Assembly: GCA_964231325.1 (NCBI GenBank)
Contig: CAXRIF010000002.1
Location: 5,908 to 69,907, forward strand
DNA: 64,000 bases
Direction of reading: 5' to 3'
Source of the DNA: Rickettsiales bacterium
Lineage (GTDB): Bacteria > Pseudomonadota > Alphaproteobacteria > Rickettsiales > SXRF01
How positions within the stretch are numbered: position 1 is the stretch's first letter; each line of letters starts with the position of its first letter. Under the pieces are notes generated by a model that was given only the letters and a program-made list of their open reading frames with translations, was not told where the DNA came from and ran no database searches. Of this stretch, positions 25,631 through 56,107 are shown one piece after another. The position numbers and the translations under genes are program-made.

Positions 25631-25633
25631 GCG

Positions 25634-26593: not shown

Positions 26594-26602
26594 AAACCTG
26601 CC

Positions 26603-28057
26603 CTACGTTTTCAGACATTCCAGCAATTCGGCTTCTTTGCCAAAATATGCTGCTTGTGAAACGAAACGCGGTGTCGCACCGGTAGCATAATATTCACCGG
26701 AAAGGACACCATCCTCTCCCAACGCTCCCGAGCGAAACCCGAACAAGGTCTGTGTTACAATATTTTCGCCTTGCAGGCCAACGATTTCATCAATCTGGGT
26801 GACGCGTCGCTTGCCATCGCGCTGACGCGATACCTGTACCACCAGATGCACGGCGCTGGCAATTTGATTACGTAAGGATGGAAGCGCCATACGCACTGCC
26901 GACATACCTACCAGATTTTCAATACGGCTCAGCGCATCACGCGGGCTATTGGCGTGAATGGTCGCCATCGAACCGTCATGACCAGTATTCATCGCTGATA
27001 GCACCTCAATCACCTCGTCCCCACGAATCTCACCAATAATAATACGATCTGGGCGCATACGTAGTGCATTTCGTACCAGCTGGCGCTGCGTCACCTCACC
27101 TGCACCCTCCATATTGGGTGGGCGCGATTCCATACGCAACACATGGGGCTGCTGCAATTGCAATTCGGCGGCATCCTCAATAGTGATAACGCGTTCGGCG
27201 CGATCAATATTGCCGGAAATGGCATTAAGCAACGTGGTTTTACCACTACCCGTACCGCCAGAAATAATCATGTTCAGGCGAATGCCACCGCAAATACCAA
27301 GGAATTTACACATCGCCTCGCTCATTGAGCCAAGCCCCACATAGTCATTTAGCCCGATGCTTTGTTTGCGAAATTTACGAATGGACACCAGAGAACCATC
27401 CAATGCCAGCGGCGGAATAATCGCGTTAAAACGCGAACCATCCGGCATACGCGCATCCACCATGGGGCTGGCTTCATCCACACGCCTGCCGACGATCGAT
27501 ACAATTTTCTGGATTACATTCACCAGGTGGCGTTCGCTACTGAAGGTCACATCCGTAAGCAATACCTTACCGTGTTTTTCAATAAACACGCGATTAAACC
27601 CGTTAATCATAATGTCGGAAATTTCACTGTCAGACATCAGCACCTCGATCGGCCCAAAACCCAACAAGTCGTCCACCGCCTGCTCTTTGAGGCGTTCGAC
27701 TTGTGCGTTAGTGAGTGGCACCTGAATATCATGATATAAAATATGCGCTGAAGCTTCGCGAATACGTTCCCGTTTGGCTTCATCAGTCATACTTTCTAAC
27801 TGCGAGAAATCCACCTTCTCAAGCAACAGTTCTGTCAGCCGCTTTTTGGCAGCCTTATATTCTTCGGTAGCAAGTTTTGCATCAGTGAAGCTGATTTCTG
27901 GCTTCTCCGTATGGTGTGTATAGCCCTCTTTTGCGGCTTCGTGCGAAAATATTTTTTTATCCGCAAGGCGTACTGCCTCTACTGGGCGCGCTTCCTCTTG
28001 CGATACGTGTTGTTCTGTAGGTGGCGTCAATGGGCCGCTATCTTTTTTACCGAACAT
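26603..28057 (-). CDS. cpaF: Tad pilus ATPase CpaF/TadA
   Basis: [27 protein letters not shown]. Confidence 0.96.
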
Positions 28058-29292
28058 TACGCACCCCCTTTAAGTATATTGGGAAAAGACAGTAATCCCT
28101 TTTTGGGTTCATTCAATTTATCAGCAGGCAGGCTGGATGTGTCGCCATAACGCAGAATCAGTTTACGAGCCATATCAGAAATCTGTTGGCGCAATACGGT
28201 GCTTTGTTCGCCTTCAAACAGCGTATGTGCATTGTTTTCCGCCTGCGTCACTGCTTTCACATCATTATCAATATGCACATCGATTTTACGGCGACATATG
28301 CGTTCAAAATCCTGATTATCGATTGCTTCTTTAAATTTTGCGCCACTACGGTTAATCACAATGGAGATATGTTCTTTATCGACACCAATTTTCTGCCAGG
28401 CCGCAAGCAAGCGTGAAGCGTGCGTCAGTGAGCGCAACCATAATTGCCCTACCATCATCACATGGTCTGAATAGGTAAGCGTTGCGGCTGTCCAGTCGGT
28501 CCACACATGCGGCACATCAATCACCACAAAACGAAACTTACTACGCAGAATCGTAATAAGTTCGCGCACCACTTCCGGGCGTATATTAGGAAGTAAGCGA
28601 AGCTCACTTGGCGCCGACACAATCTGCAAATGATCGCGGTAATTGACCAGCATTTTACTCACTAATCGTCCATCCAGCCCACGTTCCGGATCGTCAAATA
28701 TTTCACGGATACCAAACGGCGCAGCCAGATCCAGACTTTTACAAATAAGACCAAACTGATAGTCCATATCAACCAGCACGGTTGGCTGTTTATATTCCGT
28801 GGCCAGGCAATAAGCCAGGTTGAGTGCTACGGTACTAGATCCATCACCCGATGCTGCACTAATACAGGAGATGACTTTACCTTTAGGTAGGTTGGCCTCG
28901 TTCTTCGCTGCGCTGGAGGCTTTATCCACCAATATAGCTGCCACCTCATCGGGGTTTGCCGGATGCGTAAAATATTCAAGCACGCCGCGCTGCTTAAGTT
29001 CACGGTAAAAATCAATATCGTTCGTAGCACCCGTCACCACCACGCGTACGTTTGATTCACAATGCTGTGCAAACTCATCAAGTGCGGGCAGTATATCATC
29101 CGTATGCTGTCCAATATTAATCAGCATATGTTCTGGCGAGCTGGTGCGCAAACTTAACGCGTGTATTGCATCAGCAAAGCCACCCGCTACCACGTGCGCA
29201 TCAGGAAAACCCAACTCTTTGGCAAGCTCAGAGCTGGCATTCACCTGCTCCTGATCCAGACATATAACCAAGAGTGGGCTGAACAAACTCAT
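28057..29292 (-). CDS. cpaE: CpaE/TadZ pilus localisation protein
   Basis: Receiver-like N-terminus plus MinD-like domain with deviant Walker A. Confidence 0.88.
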   Translation of the reverse strand: MSLFSPLLVICLDQEQVNASSELAKELGFPDAHVVAGGFADAIHALSLRTSSPEHMLINIGQHTDDILPALDEFAQHCESNVRVVVTGATNDIDFYRELKQRGVLEYFTHPANPDEVAAILVDKASSAAKNEANLPKGKVISCISAASGDGSSTVALNLAYCLATEYKQPTVLVDMDYQFGLICKSLDLAAPFGIREIFDDPERGLDGRLVSKMLVNYRDHLQIVSAPSELRLLPNIRPEVVRELITILRSKFRFVVIDVPHVWTDWTAATLTYSDHVMMVGQLWLRSLTHASRLLAAWQKIGVDKEHISIVINRSGAKFKEAIDNQDFERICRRKIDVHIDNDVKAVTQAENNAHTLFEGEQSTVLRQQISDMARKLILRYGDTSSLPADKLNEPKKGLLSFPNILKGGA

Positions 29293-29313
29293 AAAGAAAT
29301 AATACCGATATTG

Positions 29314-29991
29314 TTACTGCGTCGAAATAGTGCTGAGCACTGACTGATTATTGTGAGTCGGTTCTGGCGATGGGTTCTGGTAGCGACGATAGGTTTGCAC
29401 CGCCTTGTCACCATCGGGCATATCCATCAATGCCGGATCCACAAATTGTGACTTATCACTCACCATTTGCATCGTGTTGCCAACCACCGAACAGCCTAGC
29501 TGTTGCATTGGCACATTATAAGGGTTGCTGCTATTATCAACAAAGCGGCTATCACAATCACGCACAATCACACGCTCATACACCAACACCACATCGTCAC
29601 CACCACCGGTGAACTCAGTTGGAATCCGTTGGTTAGCAAAAATAGAGCGTGCTTCCATGCACAGCGCCTCACCTCGCATACAATTAAGCTCGGCGCGCGT
29701 AGGGCGATCATCACGCACCATCGCTGCAATCTCACTCAGTGCGCCACGCGAATCAAGGCTCATAGTGACCAACTCAGAAGAGCGATCGAGTAATCGTTCC
29801 GGATCCCCTGGGTTATTAAAGGCTTCTGCCGGTGGCCCCGCATAGGTGTATGGCTTGGCTTCCTGTTGATCAGGGTATTCGTGTGTACCTGGATACACCG
29901 TAAAAGATTGCGGTTGGTTCGAGCAGGCGGAAAGCAGCAATGCACTAAGCAGTGCGCAACCTGTAACGTAAAGTGTGTGTTGTGTTTTCAT
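29314..29991 (-). CDS. CpaD-like pilus lipoprotein
   Basis: Lipobox LSAC; LGCSVVGNTMQMV motif; position between cpaC and cpaE. Confidence 0.7.
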   Translation of the reverse strand: MKTQHTLYVTGCALLSALLLSACSNQPQSFTVYPGTHEYPDQQEAKPYTYAGPPAEAFNNPGDPERLLDRSSELVTMSLDSRGALSEIAAMVRDDRPTRAELNCMRGEALCMEARSIFANQRIPTEFTGGGDDVVLVYERVIVRDCDSRFVDNSSNPYNVPMQQLGCSVVGNTMQMVSDKSQFVDPALMDMPDGDKAVQTYRRYQNPSPEPTHNNQSVLSTISTQ

Positions 29992-29992
29992 A

Positions 29993-31513
29993 TCAATCCA
30001 CCATAAACCCTACCGGTCCTTCTAGGCCCGGCGACTGTGATGTTGTTCTGCCTGCGAGGCTTCCCAACGCACCATAGAAAAATGTTTCCATTTGGCTGGC
30101 CGGACGAAAATTATCGGTTGGTAATTTCACGTCAGCACTTTTCATCGGATCAACCACATAAGGCGTCACCGCGATCACCAGCTCCGTCTCATTACGCTGA
30201 AAACTACTGCTTCTGAAAAGTGCACCCAGCACAGGCAACTCTTTCGCGCCTGGAAGCTGATCCACCTGCGCAGTCAACTCATCCTTAATAAGCCCGGCAA
30301 TCATGAAGCTCTCACCTGGTGATAGCTCCACCGTGGTTCTAGCGCGTCGTGTATTGATACTAGGGATAGAAAAACCACTGATTATCACCGCATTCTGATC
30401 GGAGATTTCAGAAACTTCCGGTTGCACTGCCATGCGAATACGATTCTCGCTAAGCACAAACGGAGTAAAGCGGATCGCCACACCAAATGGCTTATATTCA
30501 ATCGAAATATTCGGTGTGCTGCCCGAAGTATTCTGCACTACTGGAATTGGTATTTCCCCACCAGCAAGAAATTCAGCTTCCTCACCAGAGATAGCGACTA
30601 GGTTTGGCTCAGCAAGCAGCTTAAACAGCCCGTCACGTTCGAGCGCCTGAATCATCCCGCCAAGCGAGTAATTACTATCCGCATAACGCGCAGAAAACAC
30701 ACCATGCGGCGGGTTCGTTGCCGTCAGTGGGTCAGGAATAATAAATGAGCCGGGGCTACGCACCTCAGAACCATCCAGCGGCGAGAAGAACGCAGGCACA
30801 CCAGCGCCCGTTCCAAATAACACACTACCGCTACCGTTCAGATCAACTGCGCTTAAATCAATACTCAGATTTTTGAGTGCTTCGCGATTGATTTCCCCCA
30901 CCCGCACTTTCAGCATCACCTGCTGACCTGCAGTTACTTTGAGCATGTTGAGAATTTCTGCATCACCATTTTTGGCAAGATCTTCATCGTTCATATGCGT
31001 TTTTGCGGGGTCAGAACCCAGAAAATCCTTAACGATTTTAATTGCCTTTTCGGCTGCTTCAGCGCTGCGGACATGGCCAGTCAGCGCTACGCTGGTGTTC
31101 ACCATTTCCACGCCAATACGCTCGTCAGGAATAAAGTTTTTCAGCGCGCGACGCATTGCCGGAAGATCGTAACCCACCGTCACATATATCTCGCGTTGCA
31201 ATTTCCCATCTTTACCAAATACACGAACATTCGTACGGCCAAGTTTTTTACCCACGATGCTCAGGTTGTTGGCATTATGCGCATGCACATCCGCGATTTC
31301 CGGATCCGCAACCATCACTTCGCTCATGTCTGTCTTGAGCGTCACCAATGTGGAGCGGTGCTTCGGTACCATCACATATTTAGTGCTAGCATTACCGGCC
31401 GCCTGAACCACATCGCTCGACACCACAAAACATGCCGCCAACATTAAGGCAGCAAGCATTCGTTTATGCATATTTCCCATCATCATATGGCTCATTGCCC
31501 AATCCTTAATCAT
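29993..31513 (-). CDS. cpaC: Tad secretin CpaC/RcpA
   Basis: VADPEIADV, LAEPNL, FLAGGEIPIP, TELVIAVTP; true start may be a few codons downstream. Confidence 0.95.
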   Translation of the reverse strand: MIKDWAMSHMMMGNMHKRMLAALMLAACFVVSSDVVQAAGNASTKYVMVPKHRSTLVTLKTDMSEVMVADPEIADVHAHNANNLSIVGKKLGRTNVRVFGKDGKLQREIYVTVGYDLPAMRRALKNFIPDERIGVEMVNTSVALTGHVRSAEAAEKAIKIVKDFLGSDPAKTHMNDEDLAKNGDAEILNMLKVTAGQQVMLKVRVGEINREALKNLSIDLSAVDLNGSGSVLFGTGAGVPAFFSPLDGSEVRSPGSFIIPDPLTATNPPHGVFSARYADSNYSLGGMIQALERDGLFKLLAEPNLVAISGEEAEFLAGGEIPIPVVQNTSGSTPNISIEYKPFGVAIRFTPFVLSENRIRMAVQPEVSEISDQNAVIISGFSIPSINTRRARTTVELSPGESFMIAGLIKDELTAQVDQLPGAKELPVLGALFRSSSFQRNETELVIAVTPYVVDPMKSADVKLPTDNFRPASQMETFFYGALGSLAGRTTSQSPGLEGPVGFMVD

Positions 31514-32424
31514 TGCGCCACGACATCCTCTACCTGCATGTCTTCGTTCATAAATACAGAAGGCATGGAAACAGGTGCTGAACCACCCTCACTTTCCGTA
31601 CCGCGTACAATTTTTACTCCGTTACTGTTACCGCCACCTGCAGATACTTTCAGGTTAGTAAGCAACATAGATTGTGTCGGCATAACCGCGTCACCTGCCT
31701 CATCATCCTTGAGTGGGCGCAATGCCAGAGACAAGGTACCCACACGCTCGCCCAGCCTTAATGCCTGCACATCCTGTTCTCTCACCTCAAGCGTGATACT
31801 TGATGGCGTCGTGGTGGCTGCACTTGCTGTCTTGCTTGCGGCCTGACGCACATTCACCGCCAGCACTTTTGCATTATGCACCAATATCTCTGAGACATCT
31901 GGCTTCATACTCACGCGAACATCGCTGTTCTTTTCACGTGTTTGTATATCGTTGGGAATATTATGTGTCAGAATCACATCCACCCGATCCCCAGAAAACA
32001 CATAACCACCCACACCCGTTACCGCATCAGTAGCAAGCGTTACCGCGCGCATACCCGCAGGCAGTTGCGCAGCCAGAAAGCTCGGGTCATTAGGGTTGGC
32101 AATTTTATTACGTGTGAGTGGTTCGCCAGCCTGAAAGGCCGCACGCGTTACCTTGCCATTCATGTTCGCATCCGGGCTATCAGCAGTAATAAATCCATCC
32201 AATACCAAATGTGATGGCCAAGGCTGTTTTTCTACCATTTTGTCTTCAAGCACTGCCCCAACATCAATCGCCTCACGTGCAACGAGCACTTGTGAAGTAG
32301 CTACTTCTTGTTTTTTGGAGGCAGTTTGAACAGGGGTAGAGGAATCATCGCCGATCGTTTGTAACACCATGACCGCAGCAACAACCGCAATAACAGCGGC
32401 AACCAATAAAGCAACAAAGCGCAT
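31510..32424 (-). CDS. cpaB: Pilus assembly protein CpaB/RcpC
   Basis: SAF domain; GMRAVT, GDRVDV, LSLALR. Confidence 0.95.
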   Translation of the reverse strand: MRFVALLVAAVIAVVAAVMVLQTIGDDSSTPVQTASKKQEVATSQVLVAREAIDVGAVLEDKMVEKQPWPSHLVLDGFITADSPDANMNGKVTRAAFQAGEPLTRNKIANPNDPSFLAAQLPAGMRAVTLATDAVTGVGGYVFSGDRVDVILTHNIPNDIQTREKNSDVRVSMKPDVSEILVHNAKVLAVNVRQAASKTASAATTTPSSITLEVREQDVQALRLGERVGTLSLALRPLKDDEAGDAVMPTQSMLLTNLKVSAGGGNSNGVKIVRGTESEGGSAPVSMPSVFMNEDMQVEDVVAQ

Positions 32425-41056: not shown

Positions 41057-41770
41057 TCAAAAGAGCTCTATCGAAAAGCCAATACCACTACCGATGAGCA
41101 AAGCGCCTGCAACTTGCAGAGCTACTCGGTGATAGAAATAATACACCAGTGTATTGCGACTCAACACAGCCACCGCTGTTTTGATCTTCGAAGTACGCCA
41201 ATCATCCCATATGATGTTTTTGGCATCTTTGGCAAGCTGCGCCATCATCCATGCCGTGCCGATAATGATACACAGCATCTCTGCGATATTATAATCCAGC
41301 GCCAATAGCTGTATGGCGATAAAGGTAACGTAGCTGCATACGATCAGCGTTTTTATATGCGCAGTTCTTTTGCTGCGGATCATTCTGCCAAACAGTGCAA
41401 ACAAAAAGCCTGTAGCACCATATTCAAACATCACACTGGTTGGCACCGCCATTATGACACTCACCACCATCAGCTCTGGAAGGCGATTATCAAGCCATCC
41501 GCGTTCTTCACATAGATTGAGAATAAAGCGACATATAATAAATGTTGCCAAAATATTCAGTGGAAAAATAGACGTCTGAATAAAGGGCGTAAGCAATGCG
41601 AGCAGCAATGCATATACCCATAGCTGCCTTGGTATATCGTGCGACTGTGAATAGCCAATCAGGAAGAACCACACAGGAAGCGTCACACGCCCTGCTACAC
41701 GAAATACAGCAATTTCAGGAAACAAATACGCGCCAATATGGTCGATAGTCATACCAATCACAGCAAACAA
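41057..41770 (-). CDS. TraX-family membrane protein (start uncertain)
   Basis: FDALKLFAVIGMTIDHIG, GRVTLPVWFFLIGY, LNILAT, FEYG motifs. Confidence 0.75.
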   Translation of the reverse strand: MFAVIGMTIDHIGAYLFPEIAVFRVAGRVTLPVWFFLIGYSQSHDIPRQLWVYALLLALLTPFIQTSIFPLNILATFIICRFILNLCEERGWLDNRLPELMVVSVIMAVPTSVMFEYGATGFLFALFGRMIRSKRTAHIKTLIVCSYVTFIAIQLLALDYNIAEMLCIIIGTAWMMAQLAKDAKNIIWDDWRTSKIKTAVAVLSRNTLVYYFYHRVALQVAGALLIGSGIGFSIELF

Positions 41771-42528: not shown

Positions 42529-42562
42529 TTGTAAAAAAAATGTCACAAATCTGTGTTATAGT
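42529..42562 (+). promoter_or_regulatory. PHO-box-like repeat plus -10, upstream of virB2
   Basis: TTGTAAA-AAAA-ATGTCAC, 10 nt, TATAGT. Confidence 0.55.
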
Positions 42563-42568
42563 TACTGT

Positions 42569-42967
42569 ATGAATCATTTAGATAATCAAGAAAAAAACAG
42601 GATCATTATGCGTACTAAAGCCATAGCAACCACAGCCACGCACCGCTCGACCATGCGCGAGACCGCAGCCACGTTTTTGCTAGCCATCGCGATATATTGC
42701 GCGTTTTGTGCCGCTGCTTACGCCTGTACCGGCGGTGAAACGACCCCGATGGGTACTGTGCTTTGCACCGTAGTGGATTTCATTTATGGCAATATGGGAC
42801 GCGGTTTGGCAACACTGGCTATCGTCACATTAGGGGTGGGAGCATTGTTAGGCAAAACCTCCTGGGGAATGGCTATTACCGTTGGCGTTGGCATTTCGGT
42901 AATTTTCAATGCAGAAACCATTGCCTCTCTTCTCGTATGCGGTGGTGCACAATCACTTTGCGACTAA
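42569..42967 (+). CDS. virB2: VirB2/TrbC-type T4SS pilin
   Basis: Long leader; VLCTVV..IYGNMGRGLATLAIVTLGVGALLGK..W pilin core; start 42569 or 42608. Confidence 0.9.
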   Translation: MNHLDNQEKNRIIMRTKAIATTATHRSTMRETAATFLLAIAIYCAFCAAAYACTGGETTPMGTVLCTVVDFIYGNMGRGLATLAIVTLGVGALLGKTSWGMAITVGVGISVIFNAETIASLLVCGGAQSLCD

Positions 42968-42978
42968 ATACGCGCTCA

Positions 42979-43012
42979 CTGTCAAAAAACTGTCACATTT
43001 ATCTGCTATAAT
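42979..43012 (+). promoter_or_regulatory. PHO box plus -10, upstream of virB4
   Basis: CTGTCAA-AAAA-CTGTCAC (one mismatch to CTGTCAT-AAAA-CTGTCAC), 10 nt, TATAAT. Confidence 0.7.
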
Positions 43013-43106: not shown

Positions 43107-45500
43107 ATGCTTTCATTTACGAAAAAAAAAGATGCCACTATTTCGGCTGAAAATATTTCCCGCCCTGCTCCATCAAAGGACGACTTCATACCCTATTATT
43201 CACACTATAACGCGAATACCCTACTGACTAAAAACGGGGAACTTCTAAAAATCATCAAGATAACAGGCAACACCCAAGGCCTGAATTATGAGGGCGGAGG
43301 CGCATCGCATGAAACCGTGCGTGAAACGATTCGCAAAGCTGTCGCAAGCCATATTCACAACGATCACTTTGCATTATGGATACATACGGTACGCAAACGC
43401 ACTCCCATCAAGGTGGGTGGCAAGTTTTCTCAGGATTTTGCCTCATACGTACATGAAAGCTGGCAGAAAAAACACAACTGGGAATATAAATATTATAACG
43501 AAGTATACATTACCATTTTGCATGAAGGGCAAGCAGCAGAGCTGTTAAATTTTGCGCATTTTAAAGATACATTTCTGCCTAGTCGTAATCGCAAATTCAG
43601 AAACCGCTATCTTGAGGATATCAGCAAAAGACTCGACAAAGCCGTCTCAGCTATCGCAAACGATATCAGCCCACATTTTGATGCGCATATTCTGGGCTTA
43701 CAGGAACGCATTCCAGAGCCAGACGACAGTCCCTCCAGCGACCCTATTTTTTATTCTGAGCCGATGGAGTTTTTGGGTACACTGTTAAACCTGTCAACAG
43801 ACAGATACCCCTTACCAGAGGCCGATATCAGCCAGATACTAAATAACCGCTCTATTACGTTTGGCTATAACGCGCTGGAGACAAAACACGCAAATGGGGA
43901 ACGCCACTTCGGAGCGATGCTAACGCTTAAACAATACCAAGAAGCGCCCATAGAAACGATTGATCATATTTTGCAATCCCCGACCGAGCTCATTATTACG
44001 CATTGCTTTGATTTTGTGTCCCACAAAAAAGCACTCAAGACAGTTAAAGCCCAGAAAGAGTGGTTTGACATTAGTGGTGACGCTTACTCAATGAAGGCAA
44101 CAGGGCTACATGACATGCTCAAAAGCCACAATAAAAGGCCAGTGGATTTTGTAGAACAACAAACCAGCATCATGGTCATCGTGGATGAGTATAAAAACCT
44201 AGAACCGGCAATTATCAAAACGCAGAATAACTTTGGTGAATTAGGTATGACCACAGTGCGTGAAGATATCATGCTAGAGGAATGTTTCTGGTCACAGCTG
44301 CCGGGAAATTTTGAATTTATTCGCCGCAAAGCCATCATTCCTACCAGCCAAATCGCGGGTTTCAGTAGGTTGAATCGTTTCCCTACCGGAGAGAATACCG
44401 GCACCCATTGGCATGAAATGCTGACCGTTGTGCCTACGCAAGTAAGTTCACCGTATTTCTTTAATTTCCATGTGCAGGATAATGGCCATACGCTTGTGCA
44501 GGATTTCAACTCGTTTAATGATGCTTACGGCAATATACTGACAAATTTCCTACTTACCTCTTCACTAAAATATGACGGCAAGCTATTCATTTTCGATCAC
44601 AAAAGAGCGTCATATCTACTGTGTGACAAGCTGGATACACAGTACCATGATATGGACGCAAAGACGCCGATTACACTTAACCCGTTCCTACTTGAAGCCA
44701 CCCCGCGCAATGCCTCTTTCTTACTGGCTTGGTGCTGCTCACTGATCGAGCCTTCATTTACCGTAACCACGCAACATCGGGAATTTATACGCAGCGCTAT
44801 TGAGCAGCTATATGAAGGCGAGAAACACTCGCAACACATGCAAGAGTTTATGCAAATTCTTTCTTTGCTAGACGCCCCACTGGCAGAGGCATTCCGCACC
44901 ACTATAGATGGCATAGAAGGCTGTAGGTTTGGTGCTAACGAAGAAGCGGATATGAACAAACACATTACCGCTTTTAGCATGGATAGCCTCAGAACAAATA
45001 ACCCGTCTATTATGGTGGCTATTTTTGCTTATCTCCTACACCGCATCATTACCAATCTCGATGGCACACCAACCATTATCGTATTGCGTGAAGCCCAAAC
45101 CTTACTTGAAAACGATTTCTTCGCGCCTCGTCTGGAAAGCCTGATGGAAATGCTGGTGCAAAACAATGTCATCCTCATTTGCACCACCTCTTCTCCTCAC
45201 GACCACGCCAATGCCCGGTCTATTCAAACATTGCTACATGGCTGCGCCACAAAGATCATTATTCCTGATGACATCAACTACGAATACACCTCACAGGCAC
45301 TGGGCATCTCCATGGACGATTCGCGGCTACTAAGCCGTATGAGCAGAGAATCAGGTGATTTTATGTTGCTGCAAAAAGATACGCGTGTGGCATTGCGCGT
45401 AGATCTGCATGAGCTGGGAGACATAAAAGCAATCATGGCCAACGATATCAAAACCCTTATTTCGGCAGGAGGTAAGTTTGCTTCACTACCGAAGCAGTAG
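43107..45500 (+). CDS. virB4: VirB4 paralog with degenerate NTPase motifs (RvhB4-II-like)
   Basis: FIPYYSHY..TLLTKNGEL, FWSQLPGNF, PYFFNFHVQDNGHT; Walker A and B altered. Confidence 0.9.
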   Translation: MLSFTKKKDATISAENISRPAPSKDDFIPYYSHYNANTLLTKNGELLKIIKITGNTQGLNYEGGGASHETVRETIRKAVASHIHNDHFALWIHTVRKRTPIKVGGKFSQDFASYVHESWQKKHNWEYKYYNEVYITILHEGQAAELLNFAHFKDTFLPSRNRKFRNRYLEDISKRLDKAVSAIANDISPHFDAHILGLQERIPEPDDSPSSDPIFYSEPMEFLGTLLNLSTDRYPLPEADISQILNNRSITFGYNALETKHANGERHFGAMLTLKQYQEAPIETIDHILQSPTELIITHCFDFVSHKKALKTVKAQKEWFDISGDAYSMKATGLHDMLKSHNKRPVDFVEQQTSIMVIVDEYKNLEPAIIKTQNNFGELGMTTVREDIMLEECFWSQLPGNFEFIRRKAIIPTSQIAGFSRLNRFPTGENTGTHWHEMLTVVPTQVSSPYFFNFHVQDNGHTLVQDFNSFNDAYGNILTNFLLTSSLKYDGKLFIFDHKRASYLLCDKLDTQYHDMDAKTPITLNPFLLEATPRNASFLLAWCCSLIEPSFTVTTQHREFIRSAIEQLYEGEKHSQHMQEFMQILSLLDAPLAEAFRTTIDGIEGCRFGANEEADMNKHITAFSMDSLRTNNPSIMVAIFAYLLHRIITNLDGTPTIIVLREAQTLLENDFFAPRLESLMEMLVQNNVILICTTSSPHDHANARSIQTLLHGCATKIIIPDDINYEYTSQALGISMDDSRLLSRMSRESGDFMLLQKDTRVALRVDLHELGDIKAIMANDIKTLISAGGKFASLPKQ

Positions 45501-45503
45501 GAC

Positions 45504-47105
45504 ATGCTGAAAGATATAAAACATTTTCTGATCATGATGCTGGCTATGTGGGCAGTGGTTTTCATGCCCGCCAAAGCGATGGCTTATGATGTGCTGACAT
45601 GTGAGGATGATGGCACCGTAACGGATGACACTTATCTATATTTTCAAGACCCCGCAGCCCCCGATGATGCGCCAAGCTTTTGCAGTGAAGTAGATGCCAC
45701 GCGCATTTTTAGCACCGTTATTTGTAATTTTGTACTCATCTTAAATGACGTTTTAGGCAAGGTATATTGCGGCATGCAGGTGTCGCTGCAGAAATATGTA
45801 GCGATTTTAATTACCATTTATATCGCGGTTTTTGCCATACAGATATTAATGGGCATGACACAGCTAAATTCGCGTGAAATGCTGGTACGTTTTGCTAAAA
45901 TTGGAGCAGTATGGGCGTTTGTTAGCAACGCAAACTGGGGGGTCAACCTACTCTTCATCTTCTTTATCGATTTTGCTAATCAGGGCATGGTATGGGCGCT
46001 CGGCTCCATTAGTGACGGCGTGAATGATATCAGCGACATCATGAATCTACCGAGTGATCCTGCTGAAGGCGTATCTGGCGCCGTACCGGCCTATGTCTAT
46101 ATTGATGGCCTGATTTACGACGCGCTTACTGGCCCCGTCTCCGAAGCGAACTCCAAAATGTTAGGGCTATTTGCCGCATTAGGACTCGCTTTCCCACCTG
46201 TGTTTATGGTGGCGGCCTACTGGGTGTGGACAACCTTCCTCATCCTCGCGCGCACGTTTATCGCTTTCTTAATGAGCTTGTCTGCCATCGCCTTCCTGAT
46301 CGCCATGAGCCCAATTTTCTTTTGTTTCATGCTGTTTCAAATCACCTTCCAATTCTTTGAGATATGGCTCAAATATATGATCTCTTACTCCTTGCAGGTA
46401 TTGATCGTATTCTCCGTAGTGGCCATGTGGATTTTGGTGATGTTCAACTTTGTAGACTTCTTCAACCAGCTTTCCAACGTGGTATACCCATACTACAAAA
46501 TGCAGAAGGGTGGCCCCGTATCCGTCGATAAAAAATCGGTAGGTATATGTCCTTATATTGTAAGTGAAGGCGTAGCACCTGGTCTGTTGGGGCCTAACAT
46601 TGAGTGTGCAGATCCTGATTTCAATCCGGGGGAAACCACTACCATCATACTCCCTTATTTTGGAGCCATAACCGTACCAACAACAAGGGGCATAGAGGAC
46701 TCTAATAAACTAATCGATTTGTACAACATCGCTCCTTCACAGGATGAAACCGAGGAAGAAAGCCCGAACCCCGCTTGCGATGATGAATTGCCGGCGGATG
46801 CACCGCAGTGTCATCTCACTCGTTTTTACTACTTCCTGGTGTATCACTTAATCACACTTATCATCATTGCTTACGCGTTCGATGCATTACTCAAGCGCGC
46901 TCCTTATCTGGCGAAAGAGCTTTCCGGCCCGCAATACGTACCTATTCTGGGTCAAGGCTTTGGCGGGCTGGGCTACAATAAGATGCGTGGTGTTTCTAAA
47001 ATGCGTGACAAAAATAGCGGTGCATTTGGTGGCGTCAGGAATGCTGCCACTGACTTTATTGAAAACTCCCGTAATACGCGGGGAAGAACGGATGGCAAGA
47101 GCTAA
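45504..47105 (+). CDS. virB6: VirB6-family T4SS membrane protein
   Basis: Polytopic; SPIFFCFMLFQIT..FFEIWLK..ISYSLQ TrbL/VirB6 signature. Confidence 0.88.
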   Translation: MLKDIKHFLIMMLAMWAVVFMPAKAMAYDVLTCEDDGTVTDDTYLYFQDPAAPDDAPSFCSEVDATRIFSTVICNFVLILNDVLGKVYCGMQVSLQKYVAILITIYIAVFAIQILMGMTQLNSREMLVRFAKIGAVWAFVSNANWGVNLLFIFFIDFANQGMVWALGSISDGVNDISDIMNLPSDPAEGVSGAVPAYVYIDGLIYDALTGPVSEANSKMLGLFAALGLAFPPVFMVAAYWVWTTFLILARTFIAFLMSLSAIAFLIAMSPIFFCFMLFQITFQFFEIWLKYMISYSLQVLIVFSVVAMWILVMFNFVDFFNQLSNVVYPYYKMQKGGPVSVDKKSVGICPYIVSEGVAPGLLGPNIECADPDFNPGETTTIILPYFGAITVPTTRGIEDSNKLIDLYNIAPSQDETEEESPNPACDDELPADAPQCHLTRFYYFLVYHLITLIIIAYAFDALLKRAPYLAKELSGPQYVPILGQGFGGLGYNKMRGVSKMRDKNSGAFGGVRNAATDFIENSRNTRGRTDGKS

Positions 47106-47106
47106 A

Positions 47107-47140
47107 TATTAACACTTTATTTATTAATGCTATCTATAGT
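47107..47140 (+). promoter_or_regulatory. CtrA-like site and -10 upstream of virB8
   Basis: TTAA-CACTTTA-TTTA (one mismatch) followed by TATAGT at 47135; AT-rich context lowers specificity. Confidence 0.35.
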
Positions 47141-47205
47141 GTGTAGGATTTGCGGCATGGGCATAACTGGTTATTTATACGGCATAATTATGGTGGTTTA
47201 CATTA

Positions 47206-47874
47206 ATGGCTAAAGCTTCTACGGAGGTATTCGAAAGCAAAAACTGGTACAAAGATCGTTACCAGTATGTGTTGGTGCAGCGCAAACTACTAGCGCTCAT
47301 CACCTTTCTGTCGCTCGCCTGCACCTTTCTTACCGTGTTTGTAATCGCACAACTAACGCCGCTAAAAACGGTGGAGCCTTTTGTTATTCAGGTGGATCAG
47401 AAAACCGGCATTGTACAAACCGTCGACCCGCTCACCGCTACCGAGCTTACTGCTAATGAAGCAGTCAATAGCTTCTATATTGTGCAATATATCAGAGCGC
47501 GCGAGACATACAGTATTGCAGATTTAGCGCGCAACTACGAAACCGTGCGCGTAATGTCTGAAAACACACGCGTCTATCCAGAGTTTACGCAACAGCAAAA
47601 CCCCAACAACCCCACGAGTAACGCCGCACGACTTGGCGCCACTGGCAGCAGAACGGTGAAGTTCAAATCGTTCTCCTACCTTACCCCCACCACGGTGCAA
47701 GCGCGTGTCATGATCGAAGAGAAAAATGATAGTGGTATTTATAATTTCCATAAAATTATCACTCTGGAGTTCCAGTATATCAAGCTGAGCCTGACAAATG
47801 AGGAACGCTACATTAACCCGTTAGGCTTCCGTGTTACTTCATACCGTGTAGACGAGGAAATTTTACAGCGATGA
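47206..47874 (+). CDS. virB8: VirB8
   Basis: PLKTVEPFVIQVD, YIRARETY, NPLGFRVTSYRVD. Confidence 0.95.
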   Translation: MAKASTEVFESKNWYKDRYQYVLVQRKLLALITFLSLACTFLTVFVIAQLTPLKTVEPFVIQVDQKTGIVQTVDPLTATELTANEAVNSFYIVQYIRARETYSIADLARNYETVRVMSENTRVYPEFTQQQNPNNPTSNAARLGATGSRTVKFKSFSYLTPTTVQARVMIEEKNDSGIYNFHKIITLEFQYIKLSLTNEERYINPLGFRVTSYRVDEEILQR

Positions 47875-48683
47875 AAAAAACTCTTCCCATAATCACACTG
47901 CTTGCTTTGGCTGCCCCCGCCCAAACAGCATTGGCTAATGCAGATGATATAACACTTCCGATTGATAGTCGTATAAAGGTGCTGCTCTATGATGAGTCAG
48001 ACGTCTATACCATTACCGCCAAGTATGGCTACCAAACCAATTTAGTGTTTTCTAAATACGAAGAAATACAAACCATTTCCGTTGGTGATCGTTCACTATG
48101 GCAGATTATTCCCTCAGGCAATCGCCTGTTTATCCGGCCGATGGATGATGATGTAACCACAAATATGACCGTACTCACTAACAGACGTTCGTATCAGTTT
48201 GATCTCAAGTCACTGAGTGACTCCGATAAAGATAAACCAATCTATGTTGCGCGTTTCAAATATCCGGAAGATTTTCGCAAACCGAAAAAGCCTGGTTCGC
48301 CGCCGCCACCGCCGCGCCCAGATATGATGCCGGAAATGCCGCCTATGCCGGGCATGAAACCTCCCCCTGCTTCTAACGCAGGTGGTTTCAGGCCATTACC
48401 GCCAAATATGGAAGCCATGAATAACTATAATTATACTTATGCTGGGCCGGATGCTCTGGCACCGGTAAAAGTGTTTGATGATGGCAACTCTACTTTTATT
48501 AAGCACCGTAAAGGCACCACCTCCATCCCAGAGGTTTTTGTTCGTAAAAATGGCACCGAACAAGCCGTAAGCTACTACATCAAAGGTGATATGATGGTCG
48601 TAAGTGCGGTTGCTGGAGAGCTAATATTACGGCACGATAACCAGACTGTGAATGTGTATAATGAAATGCTAAACCCGAGATAG
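47871..48683 (+). CDS. virB9: VirB9 with proline-rich linker
   Basis: DSRIK, NRLFIRP, TNRRSYQF, NYNY, PVKVFDDG. Confidence 0.92.
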   Translation: MKKTLPIITLLALAAPAQTALANADDITLPIDSRIKVLLYDESDVYTITAKYGYQTNLVFSKYEEIQTISVGDRSLWQIIPSGNRLFIRPMDDDVTTNMTVLTNRRSYQFDLKSLSDSDKDKPIYVARFKYPEDFRKPKKPGSPPPPPRPDMMPEMPPMPGMKPPPASNAGGFRPLPPNMEAMNNYNYTYAGPDALAPVKVFDDGNSTFIKHRKGTTSIPEVFVRKNGTEQAVSYYIKGDMMVVSAVAGELILRHDNQTVNVYNEMLNPR

Positions 48684-48690
48684 CGAAACT

Positions 48691-50109
48691 ATGGCTGACG
48701 AAGAAAACACACCTCCATCGACACCGGCTCCGGTTCCTGCGCCTGCGCCAGAACCCGCTCCAGAACCGACCCCCGCACCTGCGCCTCAGCCGGTTCCTGC
48801 GCCTCAGCCAGCTCCTGCACCAGAAACACCAGAGCCTGCTCCGCCTATTGAGAACGAGTTTGAGGAAGAAGATTATTTCGATGATGAAGAAATGGAAATG
48901 GAGCGCACAGGTCCTTCCGTTGGGTCTGGTCCGGGGAAGGTTATTTTATTCGGTGTCATTCTACTCTCATTTGTCGTGTTTATGCTCTATAGCCTGTTTT
49001 CCGACAGTGCGCCGCCTGCACCACCACCAGCAACCCTTACAGCTGTAGTGCCCGAAGATAATGCCCCTCCTGTTAATGTTGCGCCTGCGCCGCCTCCGCC
49101 ACCAGTTGCAAAAACCACGTTGGCGCCTCCACCACCACCTCCACCGCCACCTCCGCCGCCTCCGCCTCCGCCTCCACCTCCGCAACCGAAGGCCAAAGCG
49201 GTAGTGCCTCCACCACCTGCTCCTCCAACCAAGATGGCAGCACCACCACCTATGCCAAATGTAAAGGCGCTCAGCCCACTTAAGAGCGACAGCACAGACA
49301 AAGCACAGCAGCAGCGCATGCGTTCAAATATGTTGATTATGAACCCCAGGCAGCTAGCTCCTCCACCTGAAGGTGGTGAGGCTCAGGCCGCATTAAACGG
49401 CATGGACAAAAACACCGCTTTTGCCAGTAATGTGCTGACTGCAACCAAAGCACAAACAGCAAAGGCAACGCGTCTCAGCAACCTATCCTCAACTATTGCT
49501 GAGGGAAAAATCATCGAAGCAGTCATAGAGACTGGTATTAACACTGATATGGCTGCCGGAGCTCGTGCCATCATTAGCCGGGATATCTACGCAGAATCAG
49601 GCCGTAATGTCATGATACCAAAGGGTTCACGTTTAATCGGTATTTATAATTCTGATATAGATCGTGGCCAAGTTAGAGTATTTATCGTCTGGAGACGTAT
49701 CATTCGACCAGACGGTGTTGATATTGAGGTAGGGTCACCTGCGATCGATTCGTTAGGTCGAGGTGGTGTGGCTGGTATCGCAGATAATAAATATGCTGAA
49801 GTGTTCAGCGCTGCTTTCCTAACCAGTGTTATTTCGATTGGTGTGGGCTTGGGTGTGGATGCTATTGAAGATACGGAATCCTCCACCACCAGAAACACCG
49901 ATGGCAGCTCAACTTCTACCGGAGGTGCCGCTTCCGCTGCAACTACAGGGGCAGTCCAAACTATCGGTGGCGCATCAAAAGGTATTGTCGATTCTCTACT
50001 GAATATCAAGCCTACCATTACCGTTGATCAGGGTACCCGTATCAATGTATTCGTACAGAGAGACTTGATATTCCCGTCTAATATGGGTGGTGGGCCGTTT
50101 GTACAATAA
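48691..50109 (+). CDS. virB10: VirB10
   Basis: Pro-rich N-terminus, TM, IPKGSRLIG, VWRRII, PTITVDQG. Confidence 0.95.
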   Translation: MADEENTPPSTPAPVPAPAPEPAPEPTPAPAPQPVPAPQPAPAPETPEPAPPIENEFEEEDYFDDEEMEMERTGPSVGSGPGKVILFGVILLSFVVFMLYSLFSDSAPPAPPPATLTAVVPEDNAPPVNVAPAPPPPPVAKTTLAPPPPPPPPPPPPPPPPPPPQPKAKAVVPPPPAPPTKMAAPPPMPNVKALSPLKSDSTDKAQQQRMRSNMLIMNPRQLAPPPEGGEAQAALNGMDKNTAFASNVLTATKAQTAKATRLSNLSSTIAEGKIIEAVIETGINTDMAAGARAIISRDIYAESGRNVMIPKGSRLIGIYNSDIDRGQVRVFIVWRRIIRPDGVDIEVGSPAIDSLGRGGVAGIADNKYAEVFSAAFLTSVISIGVGLGVDAIEDTESSTTRNTDGSSTSTGGAASAATTGAVQTIGGASKGIVDSLLNIKPTITVDQGTRINVFVQRDLIFPSNMGGGPFVQ

Positions 50110-50136
50110 CGTGTCGTCAGTATGAGGTAGGGTTTT

Positions 50137-51123
50137 ATGGCCAACAGTTCTTTTACCGCACTTGATACCTATCTCGCTCCGCTTAAGCCTTTTTTTGAGC
50201 AACCTAAGGTAAGTGAAATATCTATCAACAAACCTGGTGAAGTATGGGTAGAGATAGGTGGCGATATGACTCATCACGAGGTGCCCGAGTTTGATCTCGA
50301 TCACCTCAAAGGTCTGGGGCGTTTGGTCGCACAGGCCACTGAGCAGAAAATCAGCGAAGAGGCCCCTCTGCTTTCTGCTACATTGCCGGATGGCTATCGT
50401 ATTCAGGTAGTATTTCCTCCTGCCTGCGAGCCATCAACAGTCGCCATGTCGATTCGTAAGCAAACAATCCTCAATCTCGACCTCGAACAATATGAGGCGC
50501 TGGGTGCGTTTCAAAACACCATCGTACGCAAGCAAGCTAACCCGATAGATGCCAAGCTGCGCGCCTTACTCGATCAGGGTGCGGTCAAAGAGTTCATCAC
50601 CGAAGCAATCCTTGCCAAGAAAAATATTATCATTAGTGGTGGTACCTCTACTGGTAAAACTACTTTCCTCAATGCGGCGCTAAAAGTAGTACCTCCTACT
50701 GAGCGTATTATTACCTGTGAAGATGCCCGCGAAATCATGATTCCGCACATTGAAAACAGGGTACACCTACTTGCCTCCAAAGGTGGGCAAGGTCGTTCAA
50801 AAGTCACCATGCAGGAACTTATTGAAGCTTGCTTGCGTTTACGTCCGGATCGTCTGATGCTCGGTGAGTTGCGTGGTAAGGAGGCATTTTCGTTCATGCG
50901 CGCCGTAAATACTGGCCATCCAGGTTCCATTTCCACCCTGCACGCCGATACCCCACAACTGGCCACAGAGCAGCTCGTATTGATGATTATGCAAGCTGGG
51001 CTGGGTGTTACGCGCGAACAAATAAAAACCTATGTGGAAAATGTCATCAATGTTATTATCCAGCTCAAACGCGGCGAGCGCGGCATGCGCTATGTCTCGG
51101 AAATCTATTTCAAGGAGAGCTAA
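50137..51123 (+). CDS. virB11: VirB11 ATPase
   Basis: GGTSTGKTT, LRLRPDR, NTGHPGSISTLHA. Confidence 0.97.
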   Translation: MANSSFTALDTYLAPLKPFFEQPKVSEISINKPGEVWVEIGGDMTHHEVPEFDLDHLKGLGRLVAQATEQKISEEAPLLSATLPDGYRIQVVFPPACEPSTVAMSIRKQTILNLDLEQYEALGAFQNTIVRKQANPIDAKLRALLDQGAVKEFITEAILAKKNIIISGGTSTGKTTFLNAALKVVPPTERIITCEDAREIMIPHIENRVHLLASKGGQGRSKVTMQELIEACLRLRPDRLMLGELRGKEAFSFMRAVNTGHPGSISTLHADTPQLATEQLVLMIMQAGLGVTREQIKTYVENVINVIIQLKRGERGMRYVSEIYFKES

Positions 51124-51159
51124 CCACTACACATAATCTATGGTGTGGTGAGGTAGGTT

Positions 51160-52989
51160 ATGGCAGCTGATCACGAACAATCAAACGTAAAACGTCAGGT
51201 CGCTAACAGGGTGTTGCTCCTAGCGGTGGTGGTTGCCATTTTGCTTATCCCTCCCTATGTCGGGGTGATTGCCTCCATTATTTGGTATTATGGTCAGGAA
51301 TACATGACCATCGCCTTTTATCCGGATCTGGCGTTCCAATCATACAAACCTTTGTTCGATTATTGGCTATCGGTCTATGAATACTGGTCGGCTAATGGAG
51401 GTGAATTTCCACAGGATTACACGTTGCAGTTCATCGGCCCGCCTGCCGGTGGCTTATTCTTAAGTCTATTCCTGCTGTATCTGATTCGCGCGCCGCTTTT
51501 GGATTTTCGTCCGTTCAAGCTCAAGGAAAGTGTGCATGGTGATGCGCACTGGGCAACGGAATCAGAGATTCGCGCGGCTAAACTGCGCGCCAAGAAAGGC
51601 CTGCTGCTAGGGCGTACCGGTGTAAATAACTACCTGATTGCGGATGACTTCCAGCACGTGCTGCTCTTCGCACCAACCGGTTCGGGTAAAGGTGTGGGCT
51701 TCGTAATTCCAAACCTGCTCTTTTGGCAAGAATCGGTTGTGTGTCATGACATTAAAATGGAGAACCATGAGCTCACCTCTGGCTATCGTGCCAAGCTAGG
51801 TCAGGAAGTGTTCTTGTGGAACCCGGCGGATCCGGAAGGTATTTCGCATTGCTATAACCCGCTCGATTGGGTGTCAGAAAAACCCGGCCAGATGGTTGAT
51901 GACGTGCAAAAAATCTGTAACCTCATTCTCCCTGAACAAGAGTTCTGGCAAAACGAAGCACGCTCGCTCATGTTGGGGGTTATTCTCTATCTGCTTGCTG
52001 TGCCGGAGAAGATCAACAGTTTTGGTGAAGTGGTGCGTACCATGCGCTCGGATGACGTGGTCTATAACCTCGCCGTGGTGCTCGACACGATTGGTAAGCG
52101 CATTCACCCCGTTGCCTACATGAATATTGCCGCCTTCCTGCAAAAAGCGGATAAGGAGCGTTCCGGCGTAATTTCAACACTGAACTCCGGCCTTGAGCTG
52201 TGGGCGAACCCGTTGATTGATGCTACTACCGCGCGTTCCGACTTTGACATGCAGCAGCTCAAGAAAAAGAAAATGAGTGTGTTCTGCGGCGTAACCCCAG
52301 ACAACTTACAGCGTCTTGAGCCACTACTTAAAGTGTTCTACCAGCAAGCGACGGATTTCATGACGCGCAAAATGCCGGGCAAAGACGAGCCACACGGTGT
52401 GCTGTTCATGATGGATGAGTTCCCGTCCCTAGGCGAAATGCCACAATTCCAGGTGGGTATCGCCTATTTCCGTGGGTATCGTGTAAAACTCTTCGTCATC
52501 ACGCAAGATACGCAACAGCTCAAAGGCATTTACGAAGAAGCAGGCATGAACAGCTTCCTGTCTAACAGCTACTACCGTATTACCTTCGCGGCGAACAACG
52601 TCGAAACCGCGAACCTCATTTCGCAGTTGATCGGTAATAAAACGGCGCAGCAATTCTCGCACAACAAGCCAAAATTCATGGATCTGAACCCCGCAGCGCG
52701 TACCATCAACACCTCGGAAGTACAGCGTGCCCTGCTCTTGCCACAGGAAGTAATTACCTTGCCGCGTGATGAACAGATCATCCTGATCGAATCGCACCCG
52801 CCAATCAAGACCAAGAAAATTTTCTACTACAAAGATAAGTTCTTCTTAAAACGTCTACTGCCGCGCCTGCCGATTCCGCAGCAAGAGCCATACGACCCTC
52901 GTAAGAAAAAAGCCGAAGCAGAAGCCAAGGCAAATGCTAATCCGCCAGAAAAACCAGACGCAGCTACGGATAGCAAACCAGCGACATAA
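51160..52989 (+). CDS. virD4: VirD4 coupling protein
   Basis: HGDAHWA, APTGSGKGVGFVIPNLL, MDEFPSLG. Confidence 0.97.
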   Translation: MAADHEQSNVKRQVANRVLLLAVVVAILLIPPYVGVIASIIWYYGQEYMTIAFYPDLAFQSYKPLFDYWLSVYEYWSANGGEFPQDYTLQFIGPPAGGLFLSLFLLYLIRAPLLDFRPFKLKESVHGDAHWATESEIRAAKLRAKKGLLLGRTGVNNYLIADDFQHVLLFAPTGSGKGVGFVIPNLLFWQESVVCHDIKMENHELTSGYRAKLGQEVFLWNPADPEGISHCYNPLDWVSEKPGQMVDDVQKICNLILPEQEFWQNEARSLMLGVILYLLAVPEKINSFGEVVRTMRSDDVVYNLAVVLDTIGKRIHPVAYMNIAAFLQKADKERSGVISTLNSGLELWANPLIDATTARSDFDMQQLKKKKMSVFCGVTPDNLQRLEPLLKVFYQQATDFMTRKMPGKDEPHGVLFMMDEFPSLGEMPQFQVGIAYFRGYRVKLFVITQDTQQLKGIYEEAGMNSFLSNSYYRITFAANNVETANLISQLIGNKTAQQFSHNKPKFMDLNPAARTINTSEVQRALLLPQEVITLPRDEQIILIESHPPIKTKKIFYYKDKFFLKRLLPRLPIPQQEPYDPRKKKAEAEAKANANPPEKPDAATDSKPAT

Positions 52990-54968: not shown

Positions 54969-55409
54969 ATGACTGCTAGAATACTCCTCGTCAATGGGCC
55001 AAACCTCAACAAGCTGGGCGAGCGTGAGCCAGAAATTTATGGCCATGAAACACTGGCTGATATTGAGGAACAATGCGCTAAAACGGCTGCTGAGCTTGGG
55101 CTTGAGCTAGATTGCGTGCAATCCAACCATGAGGGTGAGATTGTCGATTACATTCAAAACGCAGGTAAAACCCATCAAGGGCTGTTGATTAATGCGGGCG
55201 CATATACCCACACATCGGTCGCCATTATGGATGCGCTGCTTACCATCACCATCCCGGTGATCGAGGTACATATCTCCAACCCGTCACGCCGCGAAGAGTT
55301 TCGCCACACCTCCTATATCAGCAAAGCCGCCACTGGCGTCATCGCCGGGTTTGGCTCTAACAGCTACCAGTTGGCACTTTCCGCCATCGCAAAACTGCTT
55401 ACAAAATGA
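54969..55409 (+). CDS. aroQ: Type II 3-dehydroquinate dehydratase
   Basis: NGPNLNKLGEREPEIYG, QSNHEG, EVHISN. Confidence 0.97.
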   Translation: MTARILLVNGPNLNKLGEREPEIYGHETLADIEEQCAKTAAELGLELDCVQSNHEGEIVDYIQNAGKTHQGLLINAGAYTHTSVAIMDALLTITIPVIEVHISNPSRREEFRHTSYISKAATGVIAGFGSNSYQLALSAIAKLLTK

Positions 55410-56107
55410 CACCGCTATGTATCGCACATCGTGGTGCATCGGGAAACTTTCCTGAAAACACCATGATCGCTTTTCATCAGGCTATCGCACTTGGGGCTAA
55501 TGCGATCGAACTGGATGTGCATGTTTGTAAATCCGGCGAAGTAGTGGTCATACATGATGACACTCTGGAGCGCACCACCAATCTGACTGGGCGTGTGGAT
55601 GCGCACAGCTTTGTGGAGTTGAGCGCAGCAAGCGTTCCCTCACTTGCAGAAGTGCTTGATACATTTGCTACAAGCACCACCATTTTCATCGAATTAAAAT
55701 GTGAAACTGCGGCTGCGCCCGTTGCCAGTCTGGTAACGCATTATGCCGCACGTGGTGTTCCTTACGCACATATGCCGGTGATTGGATCACATCCCGACTG
55801 GTTGCTCACCGCAAAAGCAATGGACACCAACATCATTATTGGCACCACCCCGCCTCACGATCGGCCGATCGAAGAAGGGTTTTGCGAGCGTGCAAAGCAG
55901 GATGGTTTTGCTTCGGTGAATCCCTGCTTCAGCCAGCTCACCTCACAACTGGTGCAAGAGGCACATGTGCATGGGCTTGCGATTTATACATGGACACTCA
56001 ACGAGCCTTCCGACATTGAACAGGCGAAAAGACTTGGTGTGGATGGCATCATTAGCGACTATCCAGAAAGAGTACATGGAGAAGCTGACACCCCAATTGT
56101 TGCTTAA
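55406..56107 (+). CDS. Glycerophosphodiester phosphodiesterase
   Basis: IAHRGASG..PENT, IELDV, HD, GIISDYP. Confidence 0.93.
   Translation: MTPLCIAHRGASGNFPENTMIAFHQAIALGANAIELDVHVCKSGEVVVIHDDTLERTTNLTGRVDAHSFVELSAASVPSLAEVLDTFATSTTIFIELKCETAAAPVASLVTHYAARGVPYAHMPVIGSHPDWLLTAKAMDTNIIIGTTPPHDRPIEEGFCERAKQDGFASVNPCFSQLTSQLVQEAHVHGLAIYTWTLNEPSDIEQAKRLGVDGIISDYPERVHGEADTPIVA

Follow-up and report, generated by a model that had tools for sequence, protein, structure and literature searches.

Control of type IV secretion system (T4SS) genes and their substrates by regulators of the OmpR/PhoB family is well known. At PhoB-activated promoters, the PHO box ends about 10 bp before the -10 element and replaces the -35 element. 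The box is described as a pair of 11-nt repeats sharing a conserved core of 7 nt (CTGTCAT in Escherichia coli) in an account that also reports control of the T3SS and T6SS of Edwardsiella by PhoB (PMC4415409), and the same CTGTCAT consensus with an A/T spacer is given for PhoB of the rhizobia, which are alphaproteobacteria (PMC3131613). In Legionella, PmrA and CpxR are reported to regulate numerous type IV effectors (PMC3814349), and the VirB T4SS of Brucella is described as being controlled by BvrR, an OmpR-family protein (PMC10538546). In Agrobacterium, where the VirA/VirG system operates, the VirB/D4 operons and the substrate genes have a promoter box in common, through which an OmpR/PhoB-family regulator activates them. 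Work by Winans from 1990 reportedly found virG itself induced by phosphate starvation. Bartonella places its VirB system under the OmpR-family two-component pair BatR/BatS, and the PmrA site consists of a repeated TTAA-type half-site in tandem, immediately ahead of the -10 element.

Little is known of how the rvh T4SS of the Rickettsiales is switched on, and for the deep-branching environmental lineages there is no information at all. Regulators of the rvh system in the Anaplasmataceae comprise EcxR, ApxR and CtrA; apart from CtrA they are small HTH proteins, and PhoB is not known to be among them. The pst genes of Ehrlichia are reported as CtrA-regulated (PMC13515596), and, according to the S4TE paper of 2013, cis-regulatory sequences of effectors were still undescribed for alphaproteobacteria at that time. 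In the full-text literature searched, we found no description of a PHO-type box on rvh promoters or of a response-regulator box common to rvh units.

Here we describe two promoter sites in a 64-kb stretch of DNA (the window) from a Rickettsiales bacterium whose genome comprises 1.95 Mb in four contigs and whose DNA is found in marine and algal metagenomes. The coordinates of these sites and of the other features discussed below are collected in Table 1.

Table 1. Promoter elements, genes and gene clusters discussed in the text (window coordinates unless a contig is named).
Feature	Position	Strand	Remarks
Tad/Flp pilus cluster	24680-32424	-	RcpC, secretin, TadZ-like, TadA ATPase, two TadB/C
traX-like gene (pilin acetylase family)	41057..41770	-	Pfam TraX, 1.5e-14; two genes upstream of virB2, divergent
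PhoB-type tandem box TTGTAAAAAAAATGTCAC (TTGTAAA-AAAA-ATGTCAC)	42529..42546	+	virB2 promoter, in the -35 place
Extended -10, TGT-TATAGT	42554..42562	+	10 nt past the virB2 box; TG at 42554-42555, hexamer 42557-42562
virB2 pilin gene	42609..42967	+	Pfam TrbC/VirB2, 3.8e-17
PhoB-type tandem box CTGTCAAAAAACTGTCAC (CTGTCAA-AAAA-CTGTCAC)	42979..42996	+	virB4 operon promoter
Extended -10, TGC-TATAAT	43004..43012	+	10 nt past the virB4 box; TG at 43004-43005, hexamer 43007-43012
virB4(b)-virB6-virB8-virB9-virB10-virB11-virD4 row	43107..52989	+	downstream of the second box; Pfam matches for each ORF; VirB4 at 43107-45500
Glycerophosphodiester phosphodiesterase gene	55406-56107	+	no box nearby
motB	58551-59474	+
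HTH_3 (Xre-type) paralogue, 668 aa	contig 1, 48904	+	locus L017
HTH_3 (Xre-type) paralogue, 586 aa	contig 3, 290204	-	locus L075
PhoB orthologue gene	this genome (G000), contig 3, 36411-37136		locus L036 3412-4137; equivalog match
Near-duplicate boxes, 236 nt apart	contig 3, 651799 and 652035	+	locus L027
virB3-virB4a-virB6 variant box	this genome (G000), contig 3, about 1123674	-	locus L097; relatives' loci L145-L161

A sequence-only reading of the window had reported PHO-box-type repeats ahead of virB2 and virB4, followed after gaps of exactly 10 nt by TATAGT and TATAAT, respectively, and all of these elements are present in the sequence. It had also recognized the geometry of PhoB-activated promoters, with an 18-bp PHO box in place of the -35 element and 10 bp from the -10, and this description is borne out: each site consists of two 11-bp direct repeats, in which a 7-bp CTGTCAT-like core is joined to an A/T-rich 4 bp. 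The joint pattern (box, 10 nt, TATART, with at most one mismatch) has exactly two matches in the window, namely these two sites, and was matched in 0 of 100 dinucleotide-preserving shuffles (mean 0.00). A TGn stands ahead of each -10 hexamer, which makes both of them extended -10 elements. A TTGACA-like hexamer is absent from the position 17 nt upstream of the window -10s, which is occupied by an A-run.

The virB4 box starts 12 nt past the virB2 stop codon, so there is no space for a terminator between the two. At the upstream site, the virB2 ORF is open from an ATG at position 42569, just 7 nt past the -10 hexamer. Because the -10 element ends at position 42562, the ATG at 42609, which lies behind an AGGA, appears to be the likelier virB2 start.

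The genes downstream of these promoters belong to a dispersed secretion system. VirB10 and VirD4 are encoded once each in the genome, both inside the window, and a second VirB4 (virB4a), 29% identical to the window copy, lies on contig 3 with virB3 before it and three VirB6 paralogues after it. Over the whole genome, the tally comes to two VirB4, four VirB6, one VirB10, one VirD4, two VirB2 and one VirB3. Several features of the rvh type are found here, namely a duplicated VirB4, a proliferated VirB6, several VirB2, scattered loci, a single VirB10/VirB11/VirD4 set and a host lineage within the Rickettsiales, and the rvh-type label that the sequence-only reading had given the system holds across the two loci. 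An rvh T4SS is not known to include VirB1 or VirB5. With only one VirB10 and one VirD4 in the genome, the idea of two independent T4SSs was dropped, and the two loci are the halves of one split rvh-type system. A conjugative element is disfavoured by the housekeeping flanks and by the absence of a relaxase or integrase among the 57 window ORFs scanned with Pfam.

The T4SS locus is flanked by housekeeping genes, a Tad pilus cluster and motB, and the organism seems to be motile and adhesive, unlike classical obligate intracellular Rickettsiales. The traX-like gene near virB2 may possibly be linked to the T4SS pilin. The VirB4 paralogue of the window is, judged by sequence identity, fast-evolving; it is 44-51% identical within the genus, against about 64% for PstS in those genomes.

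Conservation of the box was assessed in the best 29 virB4 loci from 40 relatives, in which 1.3-1.5 kb of upstream sequence was searched with a loose regular expression. At least one box was found ahead of virB2 and/or virB4 in 25 of these 29 loci, at a fixed spacing to an extended -10, and in seven relatives both a virB2-proximal and a virB4-proximal box are present as in the window. Two of the four misses (L070 and L071) come from other families of the order, a third (L060) is truncated by the end of its contig, and at the fourth (L065) a 272-aa ORF was taken and the 393 nt ahead of it searched, so that the virB4 upstream region was not really covered. The expression matched 36 times in 39,380 nt of sense upstream sequence, compared to four matches in the antisense direction and three in the 219,824 nt making up the rest of the loci. 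Together with the shuffles of the window, these controls rule out a chance origin of the motif.

The 34 sites retained from the relatives share the consensus yCTGTCAAaAAACTGTCACAATtyTnTGnTAtAnT without any variation in spacing, so that the 10-nt distance seen at both window sites corresponds to fixed columns throughout. Positions left free by the regular expression are near-invariant, including the A-tract, the CAAT, the TG and the TA..A.T, the last two of which occupy fixed columns in 32-33 of the 34 sites.

The second T4SS locus was checked separately in 20 of the 40 relatives, comprising 17 genomes of the family and three from other families of the order. A variant of the box, yTGCCACAAAACTGCAACAAT-tcTgTGcTA, is found in all 17 family genomes, about 420-660 nt upstream of the virB4a match and ahead of virB3, and in none of the three genomes from other families. 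The variant replaces the TGTCA half-sites with TGCCA and TGCAA and retains the same A-tract, CAAT and extended -10.

A position weight matrix of 21 nt, built from the relatives' sites only and applied at a threshold of at least 10 bits, yields 56 matches in the genome. The two window sites are its top matches in all 1.95 Mb, with 34.5 bits for the virB4 box and 28.3 bits for the virB2 box, and the virB4 box is also the sole exact genome match to CTGTCA-N5-CTGTCAC. Although ORFs of at least 150 aa cover 85% of the genome, 46 of the 56 matches fall outside such ORFs (binomial 1e-28 for the intergenic bias). A co-oriented ORF start lies within 250 nt of 37 of these 46 intergenic sites, in most cases at a distance of 40-70 nt. 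A box is present on each of the four T4SS transcription units, namely the window virB2, virB4b, the second virB2 and virB3-virB4a. This regulon of about 46 sites, the presence of the box on every T4SS unit and the extended -10 go beyond what the sequence-only reading had contained.

Besides the T4SS units, about 40 further promoters carry the box, and most of them precede orphan genes. No Pfam family was assigned to 42 of the 67 box-downstream ORFs submitted, some of which are short and probably not genes. Two orphans were checked in 24 other genomes of the family; one, behind a high-scoring box, had homologues in 0/24 and the other in 2/24. The recognizable targets include a GGDEF-PAS protein, two large HTH_3 paralogues, MscS, a BON protein, DsbD with a peroxiredoxin (AhpC), ZapA, DUF192 and DUF1150 proteins and a reverse transcriptase. 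Both HTH_3 paralogues stand behind a box that is followed by the identical string atagccattggctaatggtta. Homologues of the HTH_3 orphan occur in only two of the 24 family genomes, and the box there scores 13.7 bits near the inferred gene start in one (G003) and just 1.4 bits in the other (G018). The two near-duplicate boxes of locus L027 have similar downstream sequence and precede the gene for a 449-aa reverse transcriptase (Pfam RVT_1).

Some of the proteins encoded behind the boxes share features at their C termini. A terminal [E/D/S]R is found in 9 of 56 genes in box-headed operons (for example at loci L033, L075, L081, L086, L093, L094 and L095) and in 20 of 1775 others (Fisher 8e-8, for a pattern that was defined post hoc), and a common tail of the type ..EQNKG.ER recurs in several box-headed proteins. 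The [E/D/S]R tail may be a C-terminal export signal. The classical positively charged T4SS tail was set aside, as the tails were not clearly net-positive when inspected by eye. Based on their orphan status and the post hoc enrichment of the tail, the box-headed orphan genes would be candidate T4SS substrates, and the distribution of the motif looks like that of a regulon combining a secretion machine with its cargo.

Turning to the protein that reads the boxes, it is very probable that a member of the OmpR/PhoB family binds them. The genome encodes five OmpR-family regulators. Among them is a PhoB equivalog, which scores 332.9 bits (cut-off 296.2) and whose DNA-binding domain has its best match in the E. 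coli PhoB-DNA complex (1gxp, 98.8 bits; next MtrA, 79.6). In an alignment, its recognition helix, RTVDVH(V/I)RRLRK, equals that of E. coli PhoB except at the V/I position, and the wing TVR..GY is kept. Beyond its DNA-binding domain it ends in some 15 further residues of acidic character (..EEISDEEEESKSEEK), which the other four regulators lack. Those four are CopR/CzcR-like, KdpE-like, OmpR-like and CtrA, with different recognition helices, none of them of the PhoB type, and there is no ChvI-type regulator among the five. A PmrA equivalog was not found either: PmrA models score two of the regulators at 175-180 bits, below their cut-off of 330, and give no match for PhoB.

The signalling set for PhoB is complete, with PhoR (PAS-HisKA-HATPase), PstS, PstC, PstA, PstB and PhoU all encoded; pstC, pstA and pstB directly follow phoR, and pstS and phoU lie elsewhere. 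The presence of phoB and phoR, on which the sequence-only reading had made its proposal depend, is thereby established. PhoB is above the cut-off in 34 of 41 genomes. At the level of the order, the box is present in 8 of 12 genomes with PhoB, compared to 0 of 4 without a PhoB match (8 virB4 loci, best score 2.8 bits; genome completeness 100, 99, 83 and 99%). Among the four PhoB-containing genomes that lack a box, two (G031 and G035) were each judged on one of two virB4 loci. This co-occurrence lends mild support to PhoB as the reader, and only mild support because the relatives are not independent.

The canonical Pho genes are without a box. None was found in this genome upstream of pstS, phoR-pstCAB, phoU or phoB, where the best matrix score is at most 0.7 bits, or upstream of pstS in 22 relatives, with a best score of at most 1.7 bits; tandem TGTCA repeats were likewise not seen by eye at six further relatives' loci, one locus having been dropped. 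The comparison with the pstS and phoB promoters therefore goes against the sequence-only reading, as do the targets themselves, which are T4SS units and orphan genes, with no recognizable phosphate-scavenging gene among the 67 box-downstream ORFs submitted to Pfam. A canonical Pho regulon is rejected on these grounds, and so is autoregulation via the box, which is missing upstream of all five OmpR-family regulator genes. The glycerophosphodiester phosphodiesterase gene of the window likewise has no box nearby; this family belongs to the Pho regulon of other bacteria.

For these reasons, PhoB as the reader of the boxes is only likely. The co-activation of the pilin and the virB4-virB6 unit by PhoB or a related regulator, as the sequence-only reading had it, stands insofar as a PhoB with a conserved recognition helix and a conserved motif are present, and it is weakened by the pst and pho promoters. 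The link to phosphate fares less well: phosphate limitation as the trigger is plausible, although its usual hallmark, a box at the Pho genes, is missing, and we hold it to be somewhat short of an even chance. The suggestion that the system serves to kill or parasitise neighbours for phosphate is speculation.

The same missing boxes at the pst and pho genes would suit a rewired circuit, in which PhoB reads the boxes and either responds to a cue other than phosphate, such as host contact or cross-phosphorylation by another kinase, or represses the extended -10 promoters. The start of phoR lies only 7 nt past a tRNA synthetase gene and phoR may therefore be transcribed constitutively, as a co-transcribed gene; the unusual acidic tail of PhoB would fit a changed circuit as well. 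Repression is conceivable because the TGn of the extended -10, kept in nearly all of the relatives' sites, might allow transcription without an activator and independently of a -35 element, and a protein sitting at -22 to -40 could then repress. Yet PhoR, PstSCAB and PhoU are intact and make up a normal phosphate-sensing set, and the box lies at the distance from the -10 at which PhoB activates. A rewiring of this kind is unlikely.

A different DNA-binding protein, either another OmpR-family regulator or an unrelated direct-repeat binder, could also read the repeats and leave PhoB irrelevant. Mantis and Winans (1993) reportedly complemented an E. coli phoB mutant with ChvI of Agrobacterium, and PHO-like boxes are therefore perhaps not exclusive to PhoB. 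The TGCCA and TGCAA half-sites at virB3 point in the same direction, since PhoB may not tolerate them, which also counts against the main reading, and the targets BON, MscS and DsbD/AhpC resemble an envelope-stress regulon. Alphaproteobacterial OmpR-family regulators are moreover described as using repeats with an 11-bp period, for example TGA-N8-TGA for CenR (PMC9275681). The absence of boxes from canonical Pho genes would follow naturally. However, a PhoB-type recognition helix is lacking in the four other regulators, the half-site and its A/T spacer are close to the PHO consensus, and the box is absent from the four PhoB-less relatives, so that a reader other than PhoB is improbable.

An element without any regulator, whether an intrinsic promoter or DNA-shape feature (an A-tract bend or UP-like element) or an alternative-sigma -35, is a very remote prospect. 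In its favour are the 11-bp phasing of the A-tracts and the constant spacing between the motif and the -10. On the other side, the -10 is sigma-70-like with TGn, the TGTCAC lies 10 nt rather than 17 nt from it and so cannot act as an ordinary -35, conservation centres on TGTCA cores of the kind found in winged-helix half-sites, and we know of no sigma consensus that fits the motif.

The preferred explanation is that both window sites would be activator-type sigma-70 promoters, in which a PHO-box-type repeat stands where the -35 element would otherwise be, 10 nt before an extended -10. They are the two strongest instances of a motif with about 46 intergenic sites genome-wide. The PhoB orthologue, phosphorylated and as a head-to-tail dimer, would bind the repeat and recruit RNA polymerase through region 4 of sigma, as in E. 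coli. If PhoR, PstSCAB and PhoU signal as they do elsewhere, the T4SS and its presumed substrates would be switched on under phosphate limitation. We infer PhoB binding, activation rather than repression, and phosphate as the signal from these arguments, and we rate the explanation as a whole (activator-type PHO-box promoters, a regulon and PhoB as reader) slightly better than even.

Compared with the systems introduced above, the sites resemble the PHO-box promoters of E. coli and the rhizobia in repeat form, in their position at the -35, in the PhoB recognition helix and in the presence of PhoR, Pst and PhoU. They differ in that the box is lacking at pstS, the pst operon, phoB and phoU, in that the targets are the T4SS and orphan genes, and in that the -10 is extended. 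The closest analogues of the arrangement are VirG of Agrobacterium and the PmrA regulon of the Dot/Icm systems of Legionella pneumophila and Coxiella burnetii. In the latter, one OmpR-family-type tandem repeat next to the -10 is placed on the machine genes and on many fast-evolving substrate genes, to which the box-headed orphan genes, as putative effectors, would correspond here; in contrast to that regulon, the T4SS is of the rvh/VirB-like IVA class rather than IVB, the half-site differs and a PmrA equivalog is missing. A shared promoter box on T4SS operons and substrate genes is also a trait of Agrobacterium VirG, but here a PHO-type box sits directly on the T4SS promoters and there is no separate VirG-like regulator. 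As with BvrR/BvrS and BatR/BatS, OmpR-family control would act on a VirB T4SS in a host-associated alphaproteobacterium; unlike the present case, those regulators are ChvI orthologues that answer pH and envelope cues at complex, multi-factor promoters. The rvh T4SS of the Anaplasmataceae is the same split system, from the same order.

For an uncultured organism, a box that can be scored in sequence and is common to every T4SS unit provides a concrete regulator hypothesis. It also allows putative substrates to be picked out of metagenome-assembled genomes, a use to which the PmrA box was put in Legionella and Coxiella. The boxes may moreover mark a Pho regulon whose role has shifted from scavenging nutrients to interacting with a host. 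Should the cue be phosphate, its availability would be coupled to the activity of these organisms, as symbionts or parasites of marine protists or algae. In its most far-reaching form, which we regard as doubtful, PhoB would have become detached from the phosphate-uptake genes throughout this family of uncultured marine Rickettsiales and would now be the master switch of the rvh T4SS and of a fast-turning-over set of secreted proteins. Were this so, the box together with the C-terminal [E/D/S]R tail would list each genome's effectors from sequence.
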